From NCBI GenBank assembly GCA_048571215.1, contig CP182352.1, positions 1,952,001-2,016,000 of the forward strand: a DNA stretch of 64,000 nucleotides, written 5' to 3'. A program made the translations under genes and the position numbers. The notes under the pieces are model-generated. The model searched no databases. It was not told the origin of the DNA and was given only the letters and a program-made list of their open reading frames with translations. Shown here one piece after another: positions 16,299 through 29,893 of this stretch (positions within the stretch are counted from its first letter, which is position 1; the number at the start of each line of letters is the position of its first letter). This DNA is from Halarcobacter sp. (GTDB lineage: Bacteria > Campylobacterota > Campylobacteria > Campylobacterales > Arcobacteraceae).

Positions 16299-19200
16299 AT
16301 GAAAAGATTAATATATATCTTATTTTTGCTATCTTGTTTCTTTATTAGTAATATAATTGCTGATGAAGAAACAGAAGCCTCACTAGCACAAATCAAAGCC
16401 CAAATAGATGAACTTGAAATTGCAAAAGTTAACTTACAAAAAATAATTAAAGTCAATGAACCAGAAATAGATAAAACCTCTAATATGATAATCCAACTAC
16501 TTAAGGTTGAAAAAGAGCTAGATTCAGCAATAAAAAAGAATATATATAAAACATTAATTGCTGGTAATATCAATGTTATATTAGAGATTCAAGGTTCATC
16601 AAATGCAGGTAAAATACTTGACTTGGGTACTTGGGTAGTTGGGAAAGTTGCAGGAGTAAGTATGGAAAAAAGTGGATTATTTAGTAGCCCTGCTTACTAT
16701 ACAAAAAAAATGACCCAACTAAATGAGCAAAATATCAGATTAACTGTAGAATTAAAAGAGTTATATGAAGCAAGTAAAAAATCTGATGATGAGATTCAAA
16801 AACATTATGATACCCATAAAAAGAATGATTTTTTTTATGATAGTGGCTTAGGTACTCTAGGAACTATACAATACAGAATGAAATTAGTTTTAAGTAAAGT
16901 TTCTCCTACTATTATGTCTCTAAAACAATTACGAACAAATCATAGACAAGTTGTAAATCAAGCAAAAAATGAGTTAGAATTGACACGTGAAGGTATCGCT
17001 CTTTTAAGAGATAGGTATCAAGAACTAAATAATGCTAAAGATAAAAAAGAGGATAAAAATAAACTTGAAGAAAAACTTGCAAAAATTGATGATGTAAAAA
17101 GAGAAATAAAACTCTCATCTTCTGATATTACAGTTAATGTACCTGACAAATGTAAATATTATGAAGATAAGGCAAATAGTTTACTAAATAATTATATTAG
17201 TCTATCAAAAAGATATGAAACTGTTTATGAAATTTATAATGAAAAAATGAATAAATTCTATGCAGAAAAAGAAGAAAAATTAAATAGTATAAACAAAGAA
17301 TTTGAGAAAAAAACAAAAGAGATATTTAAAAAATATCCAAATACTGCATATTATACTCCTCAAACAATGAGTTTTGAATATAATAGAGAATTACCTTTTG
17401 CAAAATTATTATCAAATACAAGATACTCACATAATGAATATACATCAGCCAAAAAATCATATATAAGCTCTATTAAAGAGTTATCACATAATATCTTAAA
17501 TGGTATTCCTGGAGAGTCTGAAGAAAAAATATTAAGTCAATTAATAGCAGATATAAATGCTACAGTCTCAGGATATTCTTCATTAATTAATAGCAAACAG
17601 TGTAGTTCAACAAAATCCGTAGAAAGAGAAATAGTTACCTATGAACCAATATATGAAGTAGTTGATGGTATTAATATCATAGTAGGTGAAAAAAAAGTTC
17701 TAAAAATAATCTATGTAGATGTTCAATATTTTAAATCAACAAACTATAGAACCTATGATAATCTATATCCATATTCTCAACTCAAAGAGCATTTAGTAAT
17801 CTCAAAATTAAAAGTATTGAAAAAGAATTTACTTTCAGATATAGAAAGAAAGACAACTCAAGTTAAAAATGAAGAGAAATCATTTGCAGACCAATACATT
17901 AAAATTAGAATCCATTTCAGAAAGATAGAAAATGAAATAAAAATAGCACTTAATCAATATATAGAAAATGAAAATGAAATAATCCCTTTTAATAGACAAT
18001 ATATACAAAAACTTAAAAAACTTTTAGATTATTATAAAAATAAAAACATATTTGATAGAAAAAGTGATGGAACACATAAAGAGTATCTCATTGTCAAAGA
18101 TGATTGGTTACTTCCAAAAGATATAGATGAAAAAAATTCTTGTGAAAAAATACAAAACATAAAAAATAAAATTCTTTCACCACAAATTCAAAATATTGTT
18201 TTATTAGAAAAAGAAATAGATTCCCTACAAAATTCTAGATTACCAAGGCTTTATATACCTACTTATGGATATGTACACTTCCCAGGACTCGCTGCAACAG
18301 CAGAAAATTTAAAAAAAACAAGTGATAAATTGTGGGGAAAACGTACTGATTTAAATTTGATAAGATTAGATAATTATTCTAATTTATCATCTTTATTTAA
18401 CAAAATTTCTAATAATAAATTCTATCAATTATCAATATTAAATGGTGGCATATTTATAGAAATCCATGATAATCAAGTAAAAGCAGCACGTGAAATAATA
18501 AATGTACTAAAAAATACAATAATAATTGTAAAAGGTGATATTAATCAAAAAAGAATCCACAGGGATACCTATAAAGAGAATAAATCTATTTATGACACTC
18601 AATTAAAAAAATTCAAAAATGAACTCTCATGTTTAGGAAAGGATGAATCATATAATAAACAAATTAGACCTTTATTTGAAGAACTAAAAAACCTTCTTCC
18701 AAAACTAAAATCAAAATCTGTATTTATAAATGCAAATAAATATATAAATCAATTAGAAAATTTTAAAAAAGAAGTTGAGAATTTTGGAATAAGTGATTCA
18801 TCAAATCATGAAAAAAAATATAAAGTATTATTAGCTAAGTATAATAATTATGATAAAGAGATAAACTCAAAAAAAGAGTTATTTTTCTCTTTAGACTTTG
18901 AAAAACTATATAAACTTTTAAATGAAATATATCCTCTTTTTGAAGCCCATAGAATACATATAGAGGAGAAAAATAAAAGTGGAAATGAAGATGCCAATCA
19001 AGAACTTATAAAAGATTTGTATAAAAACTTTACAAATTTTTATTCCAATAAAAACCTTCCATCTTTAATGAATCTATTATCAGACCAATGGGAAAGTAGT
19101 AGTGATGGAACTACACTAATGGATTTAGAAGAGACATTAGATAACAGTTTTTCAGTTTTTGATGAAATAAATTGTTCAATTGAAAATTTAGATATATTTA

Positions 19201-19373
19201 AACTATCAGCAAATAAATATCAAATTAGTTATGTAATTACTATAAAAGGCTATATCTATGACAATGATATAAAACATCTAGAAAAATCCTCAGTTAAAGA
19301 AGAAGTGTTAATAGAAAACTCAAAAGCTAAAATATCAAAAACTTTAAATGGTAATTTTTGGCCCAATAATTAA
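16299..19373 (+). CDS. Large secreted coiled-coil protein with C-terminal NTF2-like domain
   Basis: Signal peptide, AAGGAG RBS, helical heptads; C-terminal IKDLYKNFTNFYSNKNLPSLMNLLS pattern. Confidence 0.65.
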   Translation: MKRLIYILFLLSCFFISNIIADEETEASLAQIKAQIDELEIAKVNLQKIIKVNEPEIDKTSNMIIQLLKVEKELDSAIKKNIYKTLIAGNINVILEIQGSSNAGKILDLGTWVVGKVAGVSMEKSGLFSSPAYYTKKMTQLNEQNIRLTVELKELYEASKKSDDEIQKHYDTHKKNDFFYDSGLGTLGTIQYRMKLVLSKVSPTIMSLKQLRTNHRQVVNQAKNELELTREGIALLRDRYQELNNAKDKKEDKNKLEEKLAKIDDVKREIKLSSSDITVNVPDKCKYYEDKANSLLNNYISLSKRYETVYEIYNEKMNKFYAEKEEKLNSINKEFEKKTKEIFKKYPNTAYYTPQTMSFEYNRELPFAKLLSNTRYSHNEYTSAKKSYISSIKELSHNILNGIPGESEEKILSQLIADINATVSGYSSLINSKQCSSTKSVEREIVTYEPIYEVVDGINIIVGEKKVLKIIYVDVQYFKSTNYRTYDNLYPYSQLKEHLVISKLKVLKKNLLSDIERKTTQVKNEEKSFADQYIKIRIHFRKIENEIKIALNQYIENENEIIPFNRQYIQKLKKLLDYYKNKNIFDRKSDGTHKEYLIVKDDWLLPKDIDEKNSCEKIQNIKNKILSPQIQNIVLLEKEIDSLQNSRLPRLYIPTYGYVHFPGLAATAENLKKTSDKLWGKRTDLNLIRLDNYSNLSSLFNKISNNKFYQLSILNGGIFIEIHDNQVKAAREIINVLKNTIIIVKGDINQKRIHRDTYKENKSIYDTQLKKFKNELSCLGKDESYNKQIRPLFEELKNLLPKLKSKSVFINANKYINQLENFKKEVENFGISDSSNHEKKYKVLLAKYNNYDKEINSKKELFFSLDFEKLYKLLNEIYPLFEAHRIHIEEKNKSGNEDANQELIKDLYKNFTNFYSNKNLPSLMNLLSDQWESSSDGTTLMDLEETLDNSFSVFDEINCSIENLDIFKLSANKYQISYVITIKGYIYDNDIKHLEKSSVKEEVLIENSKAKISKTLNGNFWPNN

Positions 19374-24391: not shown

Positions 24392-24523
24392 TGATAACGC
24401 CAAGCTAAGTGGCGACTGATACGGAGTGACATTTGTGAAAAAATGGCGAAGCCATTCGCAAATGCAGTGGAGTATCAAGCGTCCGAGTGAGCATAAGCGA
24501 ACGACTTGAGCACATTGTTATGC
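24392..24523 (-). mobile_element. attC site (long, ~132 bp)
   Basis: Minus strand GCATAAC (R'', holds the gene's TAA stop) to GTTATCA (R'); imperfect internal palindrome. Confidence 0.8.
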
Positions 24524-24976
24524 GTTGCACGATTCTAGCCTCGTAGTGATTTCTTCACCCAACCCGATCATTCGATTGTGGTGATTCTCGCACAGCAGCC
24601 AAGCCCGAGACTTGGGGACAAGGTAATACTCAAACCCATAGCACTCGCCAATAACCTTTTGAATTGCAACTGGCGTGGCTTCATAGATTGGATAGAAAGG
24701 CATTTGAACATCTTCAACCACAAACCAGACCACTTCGACCGGATCGGGTACCAACTCCGTGATTCTTTCGAAACCTTTTCCATCCATGAACTCTCTCGAC
24801 GCACTTGGTATTGCGAAAGCCTCCCACCACCAGCGCCTATCACCACCTACGACAAAGTGTGCAACAAGTTCTTTGTAAAGCCGTTCGCCCTCGATGCTTG
24901 GAACCTGCGAAAATTCTCTCTGGGGAATGGATAGTGAACGCAAGGCGTTGGCAATTTCTTCAGTGACGATATCCAT
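24518..24976 (-). CDS. Cassette ORF, DUF6756-like (possible immunity-type protein), GC-rich
   Basis: RRWWWE, FEYYLV, WLLCENHH motifs; ATG 24976 with AAGGAAG RBS; stop within attC. Confidence 0.7.
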   Translation of the reverse strand: MDIVTEEIANALRSLSIPQREFSQVPSIEGERLYKELVAHFVVGGDRRWWWEAFAIPSASREFMDGKGFERITELVPDPVEVVWFVVEDVQMPFYPIYEATPVAIQKVIGECYGFEYYLVPKSRAWLLCENHHNRMIGLGEEITTRLESCNA

Positions 24977-24991: not shown

Positions 24992-25060
24992 GCATAACGT
25001 TTGAGTTGAGAAATATTTGAGCCGCAGGGTCAAATATTTCTCTCCAATGTTTTGTTATAA
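24992..25060 (-). mobile_element. attC site (~69 bp)
   Basis: Minus strand TTATAAC to GTTATGC; central stem gagaaatatttga/tcaaatatttctc around gccgcaggg. Confidence 0.85.
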
Positions 25061-25282
25061 CTTTTTTTCAATTTCAGTTTTCAAATCACTTTCAATACAT
25101 TCTTCAAAATATTCTAATCCAAACTTTATAATAGCACTAATTGGAATTTTAAAATCTAAAGTCATCTTTTTAGCACCATTATCATCTAATAGTTTCCCAT
25201 GAAAAGTTTTACTTGCCAAATCAATATTCCATTCGCCATTAATTTCATACTTTTTATTTTTAACTTCTATATTTTTTTTCAA
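25055..25282 (-). CDS. Cassette ORF, 75-aa hypothetical protein
   Basis: TTG start with AAGGA RBS just after GTTATAA; stop inside attC R''. Confidence 0.7.
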   Translation of the reverse strand: MKKNIEVKNKKYEINGEWNIDLASKTFHGKLLDDNGAKKMTLDFKIPISAIIKFGLEYFEECIESDLKTEIEKKL

Positions 25283-25297
25283 TTCGTATCCTTATGG

Positions 25298-25366
25298 TTA
25301 TAACGTTTAAAATGAGCTAATAAATTAGCCGTAGGGTAATTTATTGGCTCCACTGATTTGTTAGAC
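25298..25366 (-). mobile_element. attC site (~69 bp)
   Basis: Minus strand GTCTAAC to GTTATAA; central stem gagctaataaatta/taatttattggctc around gccgtaggg. Confidence 0.85.
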
Positions 25367-26608
25367 ATTGAGTTTTTCAAAATCAAAATCCTCATTAAAA
25401 TACTCTTTATAAGCTATTATATGGGTTTGGGGAATTCCAAATGTGTATTCAAATATATTGATAATCTCATCAGGCTCAGGATTAACAATTACTACTTTAG
25501 GAAGTTCCATTTTCTTACAAAAAGCCTCTCTAAATAATTGAATAGTTCTTGTATCAGTTCTTGGAAAAGAATATCCTATGATAATGATTTCATTAGCATT
25601 GATAATTTCATCTTTTGCAGTTTCCCATAGCTCTATAAAGAGATTTGCAAATAAGGTATATTTTTTATCCTTAACAGGTGGGATAATTAAAGGCATAGTA
25701 ATTACACCTTGTTCTAGTCCTGTACGCTGTGGAATATTAAGCTCAGCTCCAAGTAGTTCTTCGTATATTTTTTGTGCTTCTGGTTGATTTGTTACTCCAG
25801 CTTTAAACATCACTTTATTTTTATTTTCTTCTAAAGCTATATCATCAAGAATATTTGGTGGGTAATAAAAATATGAAAATGGCTCGTATGGGCCTTTGAA
25901 TCTTCCGTCATAACAGTGATAGGGACTATATGTATGCTCGTAAATATAAAAAGATGAGTTATCAATTTTTTGATTTAATTTAAGTAGCTGTTCTCTGTCT
26001 GGCTGAGGGTATGTAGTAAGCCAATTTGTTGAGCCATGAAGCTTTATTAACTTAGTATATTTATGTGTACAATCTTCTACATCAGTCCATTGGTCTTTAT
26101 ATATTTTCTCAGGTTTCAAACAATAACCAAAATCAGTTTTCCAATTTGTGTTTTCAGACAATGCCCGATCTATCAACGTATCCCAGTTAAAAGTAATAAT
26201 GCTGTCATCTTTTCTAAGAGACTTGACTAATTTAACATGTGCATTGGAAGTAGGTCCATTTTGTATTTCATTAATGATTGACGTATATAAAAAGATAAGT
26301 TGTAAATATGCCTTGTAGTAGTAGATGTTATTCCATATTGAATTTTCTTTCATTTGTTCTAAAAGCTTTTTTTCTACATGAGTATGAAAATCTTCGATGT
26401 CAAATGAGGAAGTGAAAAAGTCATTAATATCTATATCGAAATCCTGTTTACCAATGTTGATTATATCTCCAATTAGTACCCATAAATCATCACTGATATC
26501 CAAATTTTGAAACGTATTAAAAAAATCATTTGCTATAGGCATTGTGCAATTTGTAGGTGATGAAGAATAGGCTTTTGAAGCTCCTGCTCCAATAATAAAT
26601 GTTCTCAT
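25361..26608 (-). CDS. SIR2-like (SIR2_2) domain protein, first cassette of array
   Basis: FIIGAGAS, IITFNWD, KLHGSTNW, IIPP, IIGYSF..D motifs; stop within attC. Confidence 0.85.
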   Translation of the reverse strand: MRTFIIGAGASKAYSSSPTNCTMPIANDFFNTFQNLDISDDLWVLIGDIINIGKQDFDIDINDFFTSSFDIEDFHTHVEKKLLEQMKENSIWNNIYYYKAYLQLIFLYTSIINEIQNGPTSNAHVKLVKSLRKDDSIITFNWDTLIDRALSENTNWKTDFGYCLKPEKIYKDQWTDVEDCTHKYTKLIKLHGSTNWLTTYPQPDREQLLKLNQKIDNSSFYIYEHTYSPYHCYDGRFKGPYEPFSYFYYPPNILDDIALEENKNKVMFKAGVTNQPEAQKIYEELLGAELNIPQRTGLEQGVITMPLIIPPVKDKKYTLFANLFIELWETAKDEIINANEIIIIGYSFPRTDTRTIQLFREAFCKKMELPKVVIVNPEPDEIINIFEYTFGIPQTHIIAYKEYFNEDFDFEKLNV

Positions 26609-26628: not shown

Positions 26629-26714
26629 GTCTAACTAATTATTAGTAATACATTATATATAAATAATATATAAAAACATCTAATATCTTAACATTAAAAA
26701 TGTAAAGATATTAA
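26629..26714 (-). promoter_or_regulatory. Array entry point (GTTAGAC) with candidate attI-like site and promoter
   Basis: GTTAGAC at 26635-26629 complements the SIR2 cassette R''; TATAAT at 26657-26652 on minus; inverted repeat aatatctt-a-acatt/aatgt-a-aagatatt near 26682-26712. Confidence 0.45.
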
Positions 26715-26895
26715 CTCAATTAAGCCTTAAATAGTCTAAATTTAATGAAATACAAAATAATATAAGAAAAAGTAGAATATTTTTTATGTTAAATTATCAA
26801 GGTATATCCTTAATATCTTATCATTTTGTATGACTATTGGGTGAAAATCTTGATAGTTTAACAAAATGATAAATATATTATATTGTGTTATTGTG

Positions 26896-28672
26896 AAACT
26901 ATTATCAATATATTTAGGTGTAAATAAACTTTTGCTGTACCTCTTGGCTTTCTCGACTTTCTTTTCTGAAAAAGAAAGTAGCAAAGAAAACATCCCACAG
27001 GTTTCGAAGGTGAAACTTCCCTCGCTTATTATTCATCCCTTTTGAGTGCCTAAAAACTTGCTAAAATGTGCTCCCAGCACATTTCTTTACGCTTCAAACA
27101 GTTTAGTCACTTGTTTTCAAAAGAGATAAATAAACACTCGGCTTCTCAAATGCGGGAAGCTGGGATAAGGACCTTTGCATTTTTTGTTACCATTTTATTT
27201 AAGCTGGTGTGATACTCAAATAGTATGAGAAAGTTCAAAGCTAGTGTATTTAGTCCAGACTTTGTTGAAGCCGGAAGTTTTCTAATTATTTTCGGAAAAG
27301 ACTGAGGACCGTTCAACTGGATAAAAGGTACTGAATGTACCTTTTAGGAAGGCGTTTCGCAGGTCAGAAGATAATTAGAAAGCTGTAGGGAACTTTAGCT
27401 TCAACAACCGTCTAGTTGCTTTTTGTCTTACTTTTTACAACTAAAAAGTGAGAAAGCGGAGAGCTTTGCTCTACAAGACAATTGCAGACAATAAAAACTA
27501 TTTTCAAAATATTTGAGTAAAGTTAAACTTTTACTGTACGTCTTAACTTATTCCGACTTTCTTTTGTAAAAAAGAAAGTAGCAAAGAAATTATCCCACAG
27601 GTTTCGAAGGCGGAAGCTCCCCTCGCTTATTATTCATCCCTTTTGAGTGCCTAAAAACTTGCTAAAATGTGCTCCCAGCACATTTCTTTACGCTTCAGAC
27701 AGTTTAGTCACTTGTTTTCAAAAGAGATAAATAAACGCTCGGCTTCTCAAATGCGGGAAGGTGGAATAATGACCTTTTCATTTTTTGGTACCATTTTGTT
27801 TGGATTTGTGTAATACTCAAATAGTATGAGAAAGTTCAAGGCTAGGGTATTTTAGTCCAGACTTTGTTGAAGCCGGAAGGTTTTTAATTATTTTCGGAAA
27901 AGCCTGAGAATGTTTGAGGAGAGAAAAGTGACTAGATGTCACTTTTTCGACGAGTTTCGCAAGGCAGAAAATAATTAAGAACCTGTAGGGAACTTTAGCT
28001 TCGACAACGCGTCTGGTGGCTTTTATTTTACTTTTACCACTAAAAGTAAAGAAAGCGAAGAACTTGTTCTTCAAGAGGGTGCATACAATAAAAACTATTT
28101 TCAAAATATTTGAGTGTAGTTAAATTTCTACTGTACGTCTTAACTTATTCCGACTTTCTTTTGTAAAAAAGAAAGTAGCAAAGAAATTATCCCACAGGTT
28201 TCGAAGGTGAAACTACCCTCGCTTATTATTTATTGTTTCTGTTTTGTAAAACTCACATAAAAATATGCTCCCAGCATATTTGTTCTGTTCAAACAGTTAC
28301 AAAACTTCTCCGAAACAATAAATAAACACTCGGCTTCTCAAATGCGGAAAGGTAGGAAATTGACCTTTTGCATTTTTAGTACCATTTTATTTGGATTGGT
28401 GTAATACTCAATATATATTTTGAAAGTTCAAAGCTAAGCTATTTTAGTCCAGACTTTGTTAAAGCCGAGTGCTTTGCTTTTTAAAGCGGAAAAAGTCGAG
28501 AATGTTTGACGAGAGAAAAGTGACTAACTCACTTTTTCGAGGAGTTTCGCAGACTAGCTTTAAAAAGTAAAGTGGGAGGGAACTTTAGCTTCAACAACGC
28601 GTCTGGTTGCTTTTTTGCTTCTTTTTTACAACTAAAAAAGATGAAAGCGAAGAACTTGTTCTTCAAGACAAA
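26896..28672. repeat. Three tandem ~600-bp non-coding units, each an inverted pair of a ~215-nt structured element
   Basis: ctgtac anchors at 26935, 27534, 28131 (periods 599 and 597); shared blocks atcccacaggtttcgaagg, ctcggcttctcaaatgcgg, agtccagactttgtt, agggaactttagcttc. Confidence 0.95.
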
Positions 28673-28741: not shown

Positions 28742-29893
28742 ATGAGAAAACAATTATTGCCACTTGCTTTAGGTGGTCTTGCTATTGGTACTACAGAATT
28801 TGCTATTATGGGATTATTGCCAGATGTTGCAAATGATTTAGATATTAGTATTCCTGTTGCGGGTCATTTAATCTCTACTTATGCTTTAGGAGTGGTTATT
28901 GGAGCACCTATTTTAGTAGCTTTAAGTGCAAAATTTCCTGCTAAAAATATCTTAATAGTTTTTATGGTGTTATTTACATTTTTCAACTTTTTATCTGCTA
29001 TTGCACCAAATTATTCTACACTTTTGATATCTAGGTTTTTAAGTGGTTTACCCCATGGTGCTTTTTTTGGTGTGGGTACTGTTGTTGCTGCAAAACTTGC
29101 CCAAAAAGGTAAATCAGCACAAGCAATTGCTGTGATGTTTACGGGGCTTACTATTGCAAATGTTGCCATGGTTCCCCTTACTACATACCTAGGTCATACT
29201 TTTAGTTGGAGAATTGCATTTGCTATAGTTTCACTTATTGGCTTAGTAACAGTTTTCTTTTTATATAAAAATCTTCCAAAACAAAAAGAGGTGAAAACTA
29301 TAACACTAAAAGATGAATTCCAATTTTTAAAGACAATTAAGGCTTGGCATATCTTAGCTATAGTAGCAACAGGTTTTGGTGGCTTGTTTGCTTGGATTAG
29401 TTATATCGCTCCACTACTTATTCATGTTACAAATTTTGAAGAGGGTAGTGTCTCTTATTTGATGATAGTTGCAGGTCTTGGAATGTTGGTTGGAAATATA
29501 GTTGGTGGATATTTAGCAGATAAAAGAAACCCTATAAAAGTAGCAATTTTTCTTTTATCTATGATGTTTATATGTTTAGTATTAGTATTTTTACTATCTG
29601 AATATAAGTTTGCAACTATAATTCTTACCTTTTTATGTGGAGCCTTTGGTATGTCTATTGGAGCACCTATCAATATTATCATGTTAGATAGTGCAAAACA
29701 CTCTGCCCTACTTGGAGCGGCATTTTTACAAGCTGCTTTTAATGTAGCAAACTCTTTAGGTGCATTTTTAGGAGGTATCCCTTTATTTTTAGGATTAAAT
29801 TACAACTACCCTGCACTAAGTGGCGCGTTTATGGCTTTATTAGGGGTTGGACTATGTTTATATTTTTTAAAAAGATATAAGGTTGAGAAATAA
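28742..29893 (+). CDS. MFS transporter, DHA1/AraJ-like
   Basis: AIGTTEFAIMGLLP, YALGVVIGAP, GLPHGAFFG, AAFNVANSLGA; start moved to ATG 28742 because the upstream extension is repeat-derived. Confidence 0.92.
   Translation: MRKQLLPLALGGLAIGTTEFAIMGLLPDVANDLDISIPVAGHLISTYALGVVIGAPILVALSAKFPAKNILIVFMVLFTFFNFLSAIAPNYSTLLISRFLSGLPHGAFFGVGTVVAAKLAQKGKSAQAIAVMFTGLTIANVAMVPLTTYLGHTFSWRIAFAIVSLIGLVTVFFLYKNLPKQKEVKTITLKDEFQFLKTIKAWHILAIVATGFGGLFAWISYIAPLLIHVTNFEEGSVSYLMIVAGLGMLVGNIVGGYLADKRNPIKVAIFLLSMMFICLVLVFLLSEYKFATIILTFLCGAFGMSIGAPINIIMLDSAKHSALLGAAFLQAAFNVANSLGAFLGGIPLFLGLNYNYPALSGAFMALLGVGLCLYFLKRYKVEK

Follow-up and report, generated by a model that had tools for sequence, protein, structure and literature searches.

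The window, by which we mean the whole stretch of 64,000 nucleotides that was analysed, comes from a Halarcobacter sp. genome of 3.61 Mb and 28.5% G+C, and holds at 26944-28669 an array of three tandem units of ~600 bp (86%, 79% and 75% identical), in each of which a module A on the minus strand and a module B on the plus strand stand with their 5' ends together. In order, these are A1 (26944..27219, core 26944-27160), B1 (27226..27480, core 27251-27463), A2 (27541..27820, core 27544-27762), B2 (27827..28078, core 27853-28062), A3 (28138..28411, core 28141-28352, with an arm class differing from that of A1 and A2) and B3 (28419..28669, core 28445-28654). An initial sequence-only reading had outlined the feature as 27020..28580; it does lie there, but reaches further, to about 26944-28669, and the stems quoted in that reading are present where it had put them, as read from the displayed sequence rather than by string search. 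That reading mentions neither the many copies across the genome nor the neighbouring integron. The right flank, outside the element, is an MFS transporter gene (28742..29893, plus strand, PF07690); in seven congeners the 1.5 kb upstream of its homologue contain no A-B array, an A fragment being present there in one. Elsewhere in the window, an ORF of 1024 amino acids (16299-19373) matches no Pfam family.

On its left the array adjoins a spacer of the intI-attI type (26636..26932, given no strand), which ends in a degenerate remnant of the 5' end of intI, without an intact integrase, and borders an attI-like site (26629..26665, minus strand), with the crossover G|TT at position 26635; a homologous site adjoins the genome's intI gene. 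We take the layout of 26636-26665 to resemble that of a dif/Xer site. Three minus-strand cassettes follow. The first encodes a SIR2-like protein (25361..26608; PF13289 at 22.5 bits, below cut-off, and PADLOC SIR2 at E 8e-7), a possible anti-phage gene, and is closed by an attC-type site at 25298..25366; the second holds a 75-residue ORF assigned to no Pfam family (25055..25282, from the ORF list) and is closed at 24992..25060; the third encodes a DUF6756 protein (24518..24976, Pfam PF20541), has 48% G+C against 28.5% for the genome, and is closed at 24392..24523. All attC sites were called by a heuristic of our own and not by a curated attC model. In three wastewater runs from two studies, contigs with the SIR2 cassette match up to 26635 and continue with other sequence, while other contigs skip whole cassettes, joining the attC site 24992..25060 to 25299 and 26631; the attC site 25298..25366 appears in wastewater contigs at loose ends with differing neighbours. 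PADLOC models were matched by nine of 13 hand-picked cassette or neighbour proteins, several of them solely by virtue of generic domains of the kinase or ATPase kind.

Each module folds on one strand into a rod of ~200 nt followed by a separate 3' hairpin. The rod comprises a pair of outer helices, an internal loop bearing a small side hairpin, and one long and one short helix, and its top consists of two conserved motifs flanking a variable apical hairpin, the internal loops being of the G·A type. In B1 one arm pair is the inverted repeat 27276-27296 / 27364-27384, and in B2 the family-wide motifs flanking the apex lie at 27911-27918 and 27951-27956. The two modules represent a single rod-plus-hairpin fold in diverged copies: their profiles match each other in inverted orientation, and a single covariance model (33 family copies) detects both. 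Across these 33 copies pairing is kept in 82% of cells of a 57-pair structure, slid controls pairing at 40-57%, and double-sided changes are found in 45 of the 57 pairs, a level reached in none of 500 shuffles, in keeping with the compensatory substitutions expected at the outset. This structure was drawn by hand from the same sequences that it scores, and the covariation result depends on it, because RNAalifold alone, the check originally proposed, did recover pairs but only 12 of them from an unrefined MAFFT alignment.

The mismatches that interrupt these helices are strand-biased in the manner first suspected: G-T pairs mark B's plus strand and A's minus strand. With folding performed without G-U pairs, and hence neutral as to strand, isolated G·T outnumber A·C mismatches by 21:4 in the 26 full A copies, 23:1 in the 21 full B copies and 59:13 in 79 distant relatives, the excess shrinking to 105 against 77 in column counts on a rough alignment. 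First mismatches of the G·A type in small internal loops favour the same strands over their opposites (37:1 for A, 53:2 for B), a count partly favoured by the energy model, and none of these counts are independent trials, because the module copies are related. RNA folding energy is likewise lower on the A-minus or B-plus strand in 21 of 26 A and all 21 B copies, and z-scores on these strands (single copies, 25 shuffles each) range from -1.9 to -5.3 with RNA and from -3.4 to -8.1 with DNA parameters. Folding on one strand, upheld by the G·T and G·A bias, is nevertheless not exclusive, since the opposite strand folds well too and gives the stronger RNA z-score for A3, B2 and B3, three of the six window modules. 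Taken together, the fold is real, selected and strand-specific, and the proposal that a single-stranded fold with conserved junctions is under selection is sustained by pair covariation and strand-biased mismatches alike.

Less of the original picture of freely variable arms remains. Three allele classes of the A long stem can be distinguished (13, 7 and 6 copies), with 5' and 3' strands co-segregating in 26 of 26 copies; one apex class is common to two outer-stem classes of A, and among the 14 of 21 B copies that were parsed, two join the 5' strand of one allele to the 3' strand of another. A scaffold with exchangeable parts is therefore apparent in the swapping of apices between outer stems, but not in arms that vary at will. 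Each window module is at least as close to a copy elsewhere in the genome as to its neighbours. The suggestion that arms match phage, plasmid or host sequences was not supported, as seven tested arms had no host-genome match outside repeat copies at up to two mismatches, and the ~600-bp unit had no BLAST match in plasmid or phage collections. Since strands co-segregate and outside matches are missing, the arms are best regarded as alleles shuffled among copies and not as guides. A guide-RNA system (CRISPR, OMEGA/TnpB or bridge RNA) was rejected, the variable segment having no target in the host, plasmid and phage sequences searched and an effector gene being absent nearby, and resemblances to group I/II introns, HEARO/omega RNA and difH were dropped because a Rfam hit or effector gene was absent. 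What looked like wholesale stem replacement may instead be a fixed legacy: a few alleles that diverged long ago by compensatory change, together with shuffling among copies.

The host genome has 64 covariance-model matches (best 150 candidates scored), and profiles recover 77 pieces at 16 loci, with close pairs (23 divergent, 16 convergent) always joining A to B. By BLAST the element is present in 18 of 24 congeners and in none of 16 genomes of other families; it occurs in 40 of 150 genomes of its own family, and copy counts vary strongly among congeners, from 0 to at least 17 BLAST matches among those listed. Truncated copies are common, as are mini-insertions and arms of mosaic make-up. Modules within the family recur near L20, SecF/DUF6394, S12, CysRS, HIT and MTHFR, with varying foreign genes adjoining. 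Neither modules nor attI sites show a marked replication-strand bias, MITE-type terminal inverted repeats with target-site duplication did not stand out in flank listings, and no clean empty-site pair defining a transposition event was obtained. Further afield, a phylum survey with the model found three of 140 other genomes positive (one strong in the family, two weak; best 16 candidates per genome), and a pattern search of GTDB genomes returned at least 122 loci in Proteobacteria, Bacteroidota, Bacillota, Nitrospirota and others. Of 79 such loci tested, all chosen by shared motifs, 45 match the covariance model at E<=0.1, and by eye the distant loci keep the same architecture. Viral sequences gave no loci with the first pattern and 80 with a looser one, as pattern matches alone. 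Judged from sequence, this repeat family is widespread and absent from catalogues.

Several individual loci deserve mention in their own right. In Haemophilus (L148, L174) a module or inverted pair lies between two genes that by name, assigned by eye, belong to fatty-acid synthesis. In another genus (G043; L074, L078, L072) a different conserved segment precedes the modules, the attI pattern is unmatched, and the far side of the module loci bears SIR2-like or NTPase-like genes (names again by eye). In the host, a solo B follows directly upon a PDC-S21-like defence gene behind HIT (G000:C1:2043161-2044476, L031), where relatives have different genes, and a truncated module adjoins a phage-type tyrosine integrase gene (G000:C1:2205545-2207030), possibly an integrated element using the repeat as its site. 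A separate repeat of ~30 nt, its 5' boundary sharp, stands at the head of most solo A modules and occurs also without modules; it is often paired at 0.8-3 kb, also among Rhs-like orphan modules, and has 30 pattern hits, a few of which are due to chance (G000:C1:1715054, 1804733, 809312, 810143, 2554870, 2557879, 3395567, 3396754 and others).

The 3' part of the fold links the modules to TwoAYGGAY (RF01731). As far as the available text of the preprint goes, extended TwoAYGGAY combines a long, hairpin-bearing basal stem with additional hairpins on the 3' side, short upstream repeats, 68% divergent doublets and strong copy-number variation, and is described as an RNA whose mobility is suspected without a mechanism (10.64898/2026.09.22.753630). 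A profile of the 3' scaffold, built from 79 distant relatives, matches 12 of 26 RF01731 loci 8-49 nt downstream on the same strand (nine hits at E<=1.1e-7), these loci coming from three of eight genomes; on the host genome it gives 13 hits, all in A modules and weak (E 0.006-0.85), and a direct model of the module family applied to 22 of these 26 RF01731 loci reaches only E 0.045-0.25. Repeats of 5-6 nt occur upstream of the distant relatives at 1.14 per 100 nt compared with 0.62 in random sequence, and divergent doublets, of which the host has 23 A-B pairs, are seen in distant genera too. A column scan for a 3' pseudoknot produced low-complexity candidates only. The likeness thus takes in the basal stem with its side hairpin, the 3' hairpins, the divergent doublets and the copy-number variation (10.64898/2026.09.22.753630), whereas the modules have as their apex one hairpin flanked by two conserved motifs, and TwoAYGGAY a pair of AYGGAY loops. 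The module family is also found in Campylobacterota, Bacteroidota and Bacillota, and it is joined to integron platforms, which do not figure in the available part of the preprint's description (10.64898/2026.09.22.753630). Membership in RF01731 itself was rejected: the AYGGAY motif occurs in none of the 26 A and 21 B copies (0/47), Rfam at gathering level has no match in the window, and its E-value mode yields just four chance-level matches to unrelated families at 13 loci. These comparisons would make the module family a sister family on the TwoAYGGAY scaffold, the same outer scaffold bearing, across bacteria, either the module apex or the TwoAYGGAY apex.

A further question is whether the selected strand works as RNA or as DNA. 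If the modules were structured non-coding RNAs, transcribed divergently or as 3' extensions of mRNAs and serving as protein scaffolds or stabilisers, with the integron link incidental, then the G·T/G·U and G·A mismatches would be explained equally well, and the account would also fit the lower RNA energy on the A-minus and B-plus strands (21/26 and 21/21), the several solo copies in relatives that lie just after a co-oriented gene, and the description of the related TwoAYGGAY scaffold as RNA (10.64898/2026.09.22.753630). Against this account, promoter-like sites at modules are at chance level (7 vs 6.7) and terminator-like sites are absent from the scan; genes upstream of the distant copies, ordinary neighbours, are evenly oriented (33 co-oriented, 34 opposed); the AYGGAY motif and a Rfam match are wanting; and RNA tetraloops are not in excess, folding versus opposite strand counts in distant relatives being 28:25 for GNRA and 6:10 for UUCG. 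G-N-A triloop hairpins, which are very stable in DNA (PMC13037366, PMC3201870), number 119 on the folding strand and 20 on the opposite strand of the distant relatives, outside the apex fixed by the search pattern, and 52 of the 79 distant apices are themselves G-N-A mini-hairpins. This excess is absent from the AT-rich host copies (A 44:44, B 45:33) and from the 33 family copies (34:39). RNA runs held 5-8% of the words, in contigs of relatives, and carry neither strand nor level. The loop motifs of the distant relatives favour ssDNA over RNA; we regard the RNA account as rather doubtful and rank ssDNA ahead of it, as about twice as probable, the repeat family probably working as single-stranded DNA.

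The association with integrons extends well beyond the window. The sole intact IntI of the genome (G000:C1:895239-896243; TIGR02249, 398.5 bits) is about 1.08 Mb away, with the homologous attI beside it, and from 16 of the 21 A ends that no B follows, conserved AT-rich sequence runs for a few hundred bases up to an attI-like site, conservation stopping at G|TT. Of 23 attI-like sites counted in the genome, 17, at about ten separate loci, are headed by A or an A fragment. The platform spacers share 73-90% identity with genuine intI-attI spacers, and four types can be told apart, each nearest a different intI-attI spacer (G017, G024/G019, G006 and the host genome); that of the window is 80% identical over 295 nt to the G017 spacer and has lost its in-frame stub. 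An in-frame intI start ending after ~12 codons is retained in six of 11 units checked, and also in G012, G016 and G017, so that module A stands where intI should be from about codon 12, with spacer and attI-like site kept. Behind 13 of the 17 A-linked sites the heuristic calls attC sites, 25 in 57.8 kb compared with one in 60 kb of random DNA; it is nearly strand-symmetric (23 opposite-strand calls), and a few of its calls look false. Among congeners, attI-like sites occur in 19 of 24 (none with a reversed-pattern control), and of 28 such loci ten have intI or a fragment of it, four a module directly upstream and 14 neither, which indicates that attI spreads without the module too. Modules and intI do not follow one common distribution: three genomes (G012, G021, G023) have modules and no intI match, and three others (G015, G019, G020) intI matches and no module match; at the 79 distant loci a link to integrons was not seen.

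In having IntI, an attI-like site and attC cassettes with foreign and defence-like genes, this system resembles sedentary chromosomal integrons; it differs in that one genome carries about 23 attI-like sites, 17 of them headed by a folded repeat in place of intI, and four spacer lineages. CALINs, by comparison, are defined by clusters of attC and not by repeated attI platforms. Excision from attI to attI, as in delta-attI cassettes, is known for IntI1, which can excise attI-gene-attI units (PMC12901181). A published account of the module repeat or of integrase-less platforms was not found in a literature that covered few subscription journals. One further region, G000:C1:1702000-1724500, is a co-oriented array of 20 kb with four internal A-spacer-attI platforms, and one of its cassettes, for a methyltransferase, recurs at 94% identity within the array at 1805589.

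Such proximity raises the question of whether IntI acts directly on the modules, as attC-like sites of giant size or as cassettes without a gene. IntI uses the bottom strand of attC, and the folding strand of A is the top strand of the cassettes, contrary to what an attC site would require. The cassettes moreover have ordinary attC sites, the heuristic extended to 320 nt made two weak calls, neither bounding a module, and the family is present in genomes without an intI match. Long imperfect ssDNA hairpins with bulges do adjoin attI and cassettes, in some relatives a module directly follows a gene, and novel attC-like ssDNA motifs exist (PMC8632094), but we consider direct handling by IntI very improbable. 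The module as an attC site proper was rejected, its sequence lacking paired R boxes and a folded bottom strand.

The constancy of the intI truncation point, shared by four genomes, suggests a different possibility, namely that copies are now passive, their fold a relic of earlier mobility: a single ancient insertion in intI would have been followed by attI-by-attI and homologous exchange, the modules acting only as portable homology at variable chromosomal hot spots. The recurrence of modules near the same core genes in different species, with differing foreign neighbours, and the abundance of mosaic arms, truncated copies and mini-insertions are consistent with this. Passive descent sits poorly, however, with pairing that survives many double-sided changes, even between alleles within one genome, with the strong differences in copy number among congeners (0 to at least 17 BLAST matches among those listed), and with the strict A-B alternation, which suggests a generating mechanism; we hold it to be unlikely.

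The modules also serve as insertion sites. Two types of IS110 element (NF033542) are present in four and three full copies, and modules contain all seven; one type sits at the apical motif and the other at the base of the 3' hairpin. In the non-coding regions upstream of the elements, stretches of 10 nt and 7 nt are complementary to the right target flanks, as would be expected of bridge RNAs, a match that is no more than suggestive. IS110 elements are known to target structured repeats (PMC11208160, PMC11187229, 10.64898/2026.03.19.712850), and the fixed-motif insertion and target-flank complements resemble those of bridge-RNA elements aimed at REP or attC, the targets here being two conserved motifs of the module repeat. 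We count these IS110 copies as passengers. A mini-insertion of 23 nt after T runs has nine copies in the genome, seven of them inside modules (G000:C1:958088, 971136, 1711693, 1803934 and five more), and also interrupts the intI of G017 (L023); a second, of ~21 nt, has eight copies in or at modules, and one of ~35 nt a single copy.

A mobilising enzyme for the modules was sought without success. None of 19 Y1-transposase loci in the genus is flanked by modules, one hit at E=0.04 aside, on which ground a RAYT/Y1 partner was rejected; the host's single RAYT-like gene has no flanking modules, and no recurring neighbour family offers a candidate enzyme among the 79 distant loci. This RAYT-like Y1 transposase (NF047646, 78.2 bits, cut-off 80) lies at G000:C1:2560378-2560911 (L011), beside a row of Rhs-like orphan modules. 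REP elements are typically short single hairpins, and the modules differ from them in being ~250 nt long and multi-helix, with no Y1/RAYT gene flanked by them. REP, REPIN and BIME sequences are multicopy extragenic palindromes found as alternating inverted pairs and tandem arrays, and are targeted by IS110 (PMC2817692, PMC3116915, 10.1101/2025.01.17.633520). The modules share the multicopy extragenic palindromic nature, the alternating orientation and the targeting by IS110, and the parallel is one of behaviour and not of membership, because no Y1/RAYT gene is flanked by modules.

The reading that we prefer, and to which we grant an even chance, is that of a BIME/REPIN-like non-autonomous repeat array whose working form is folded ssDNA, joined here to integron platforms. 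Its fold would be recognised as ssDNA by a copying or strand-transfer enzyme acting in trans, the Y1/HUH or recombinase type being a guess. The single intact IntI may service the satellite attI sites in trans, excising and re-inserting units that lie between two attI sites, while recombination would swap arms and spacers among copies; re-insertion of attI units and exchange could together multiply the platforms and make them mosaic. More tentatively, with the balance of judgement leaning against it, the modules might belong to a pan-bacterial superfamily of ssDNA scaffolds that includes TwoAYGGAY, bears interchangeable apices and is copied by an enzyme, and which this family has put to use as the anchoring element of a distributed integron, with many promoter-attI platforms chromosome-wide, defence and other cassettes, and one trans-acting integrase.

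What seems new, on the literature covered, is the coupling of a folded repeat to multiple integrase-less attI platforms; its kin, the TwoAYGGAY scaffold, BIME-like arrays and integrons, are of known kinds. A common repeat family without a match in Rfam 15 is now tied to TwoAYGGAY, and two types of apex on one scaffold make the choice between RNA and ssDNA directly testable. The two natural IS110 elements inserted in the same repeat are a clean system for target choice. Tools keyed to intI or to attC clusters would miss most such platforms, and if the proposal is true, one integrase with about twenty attI platforms lets the cell express many first-position cassettes at once.
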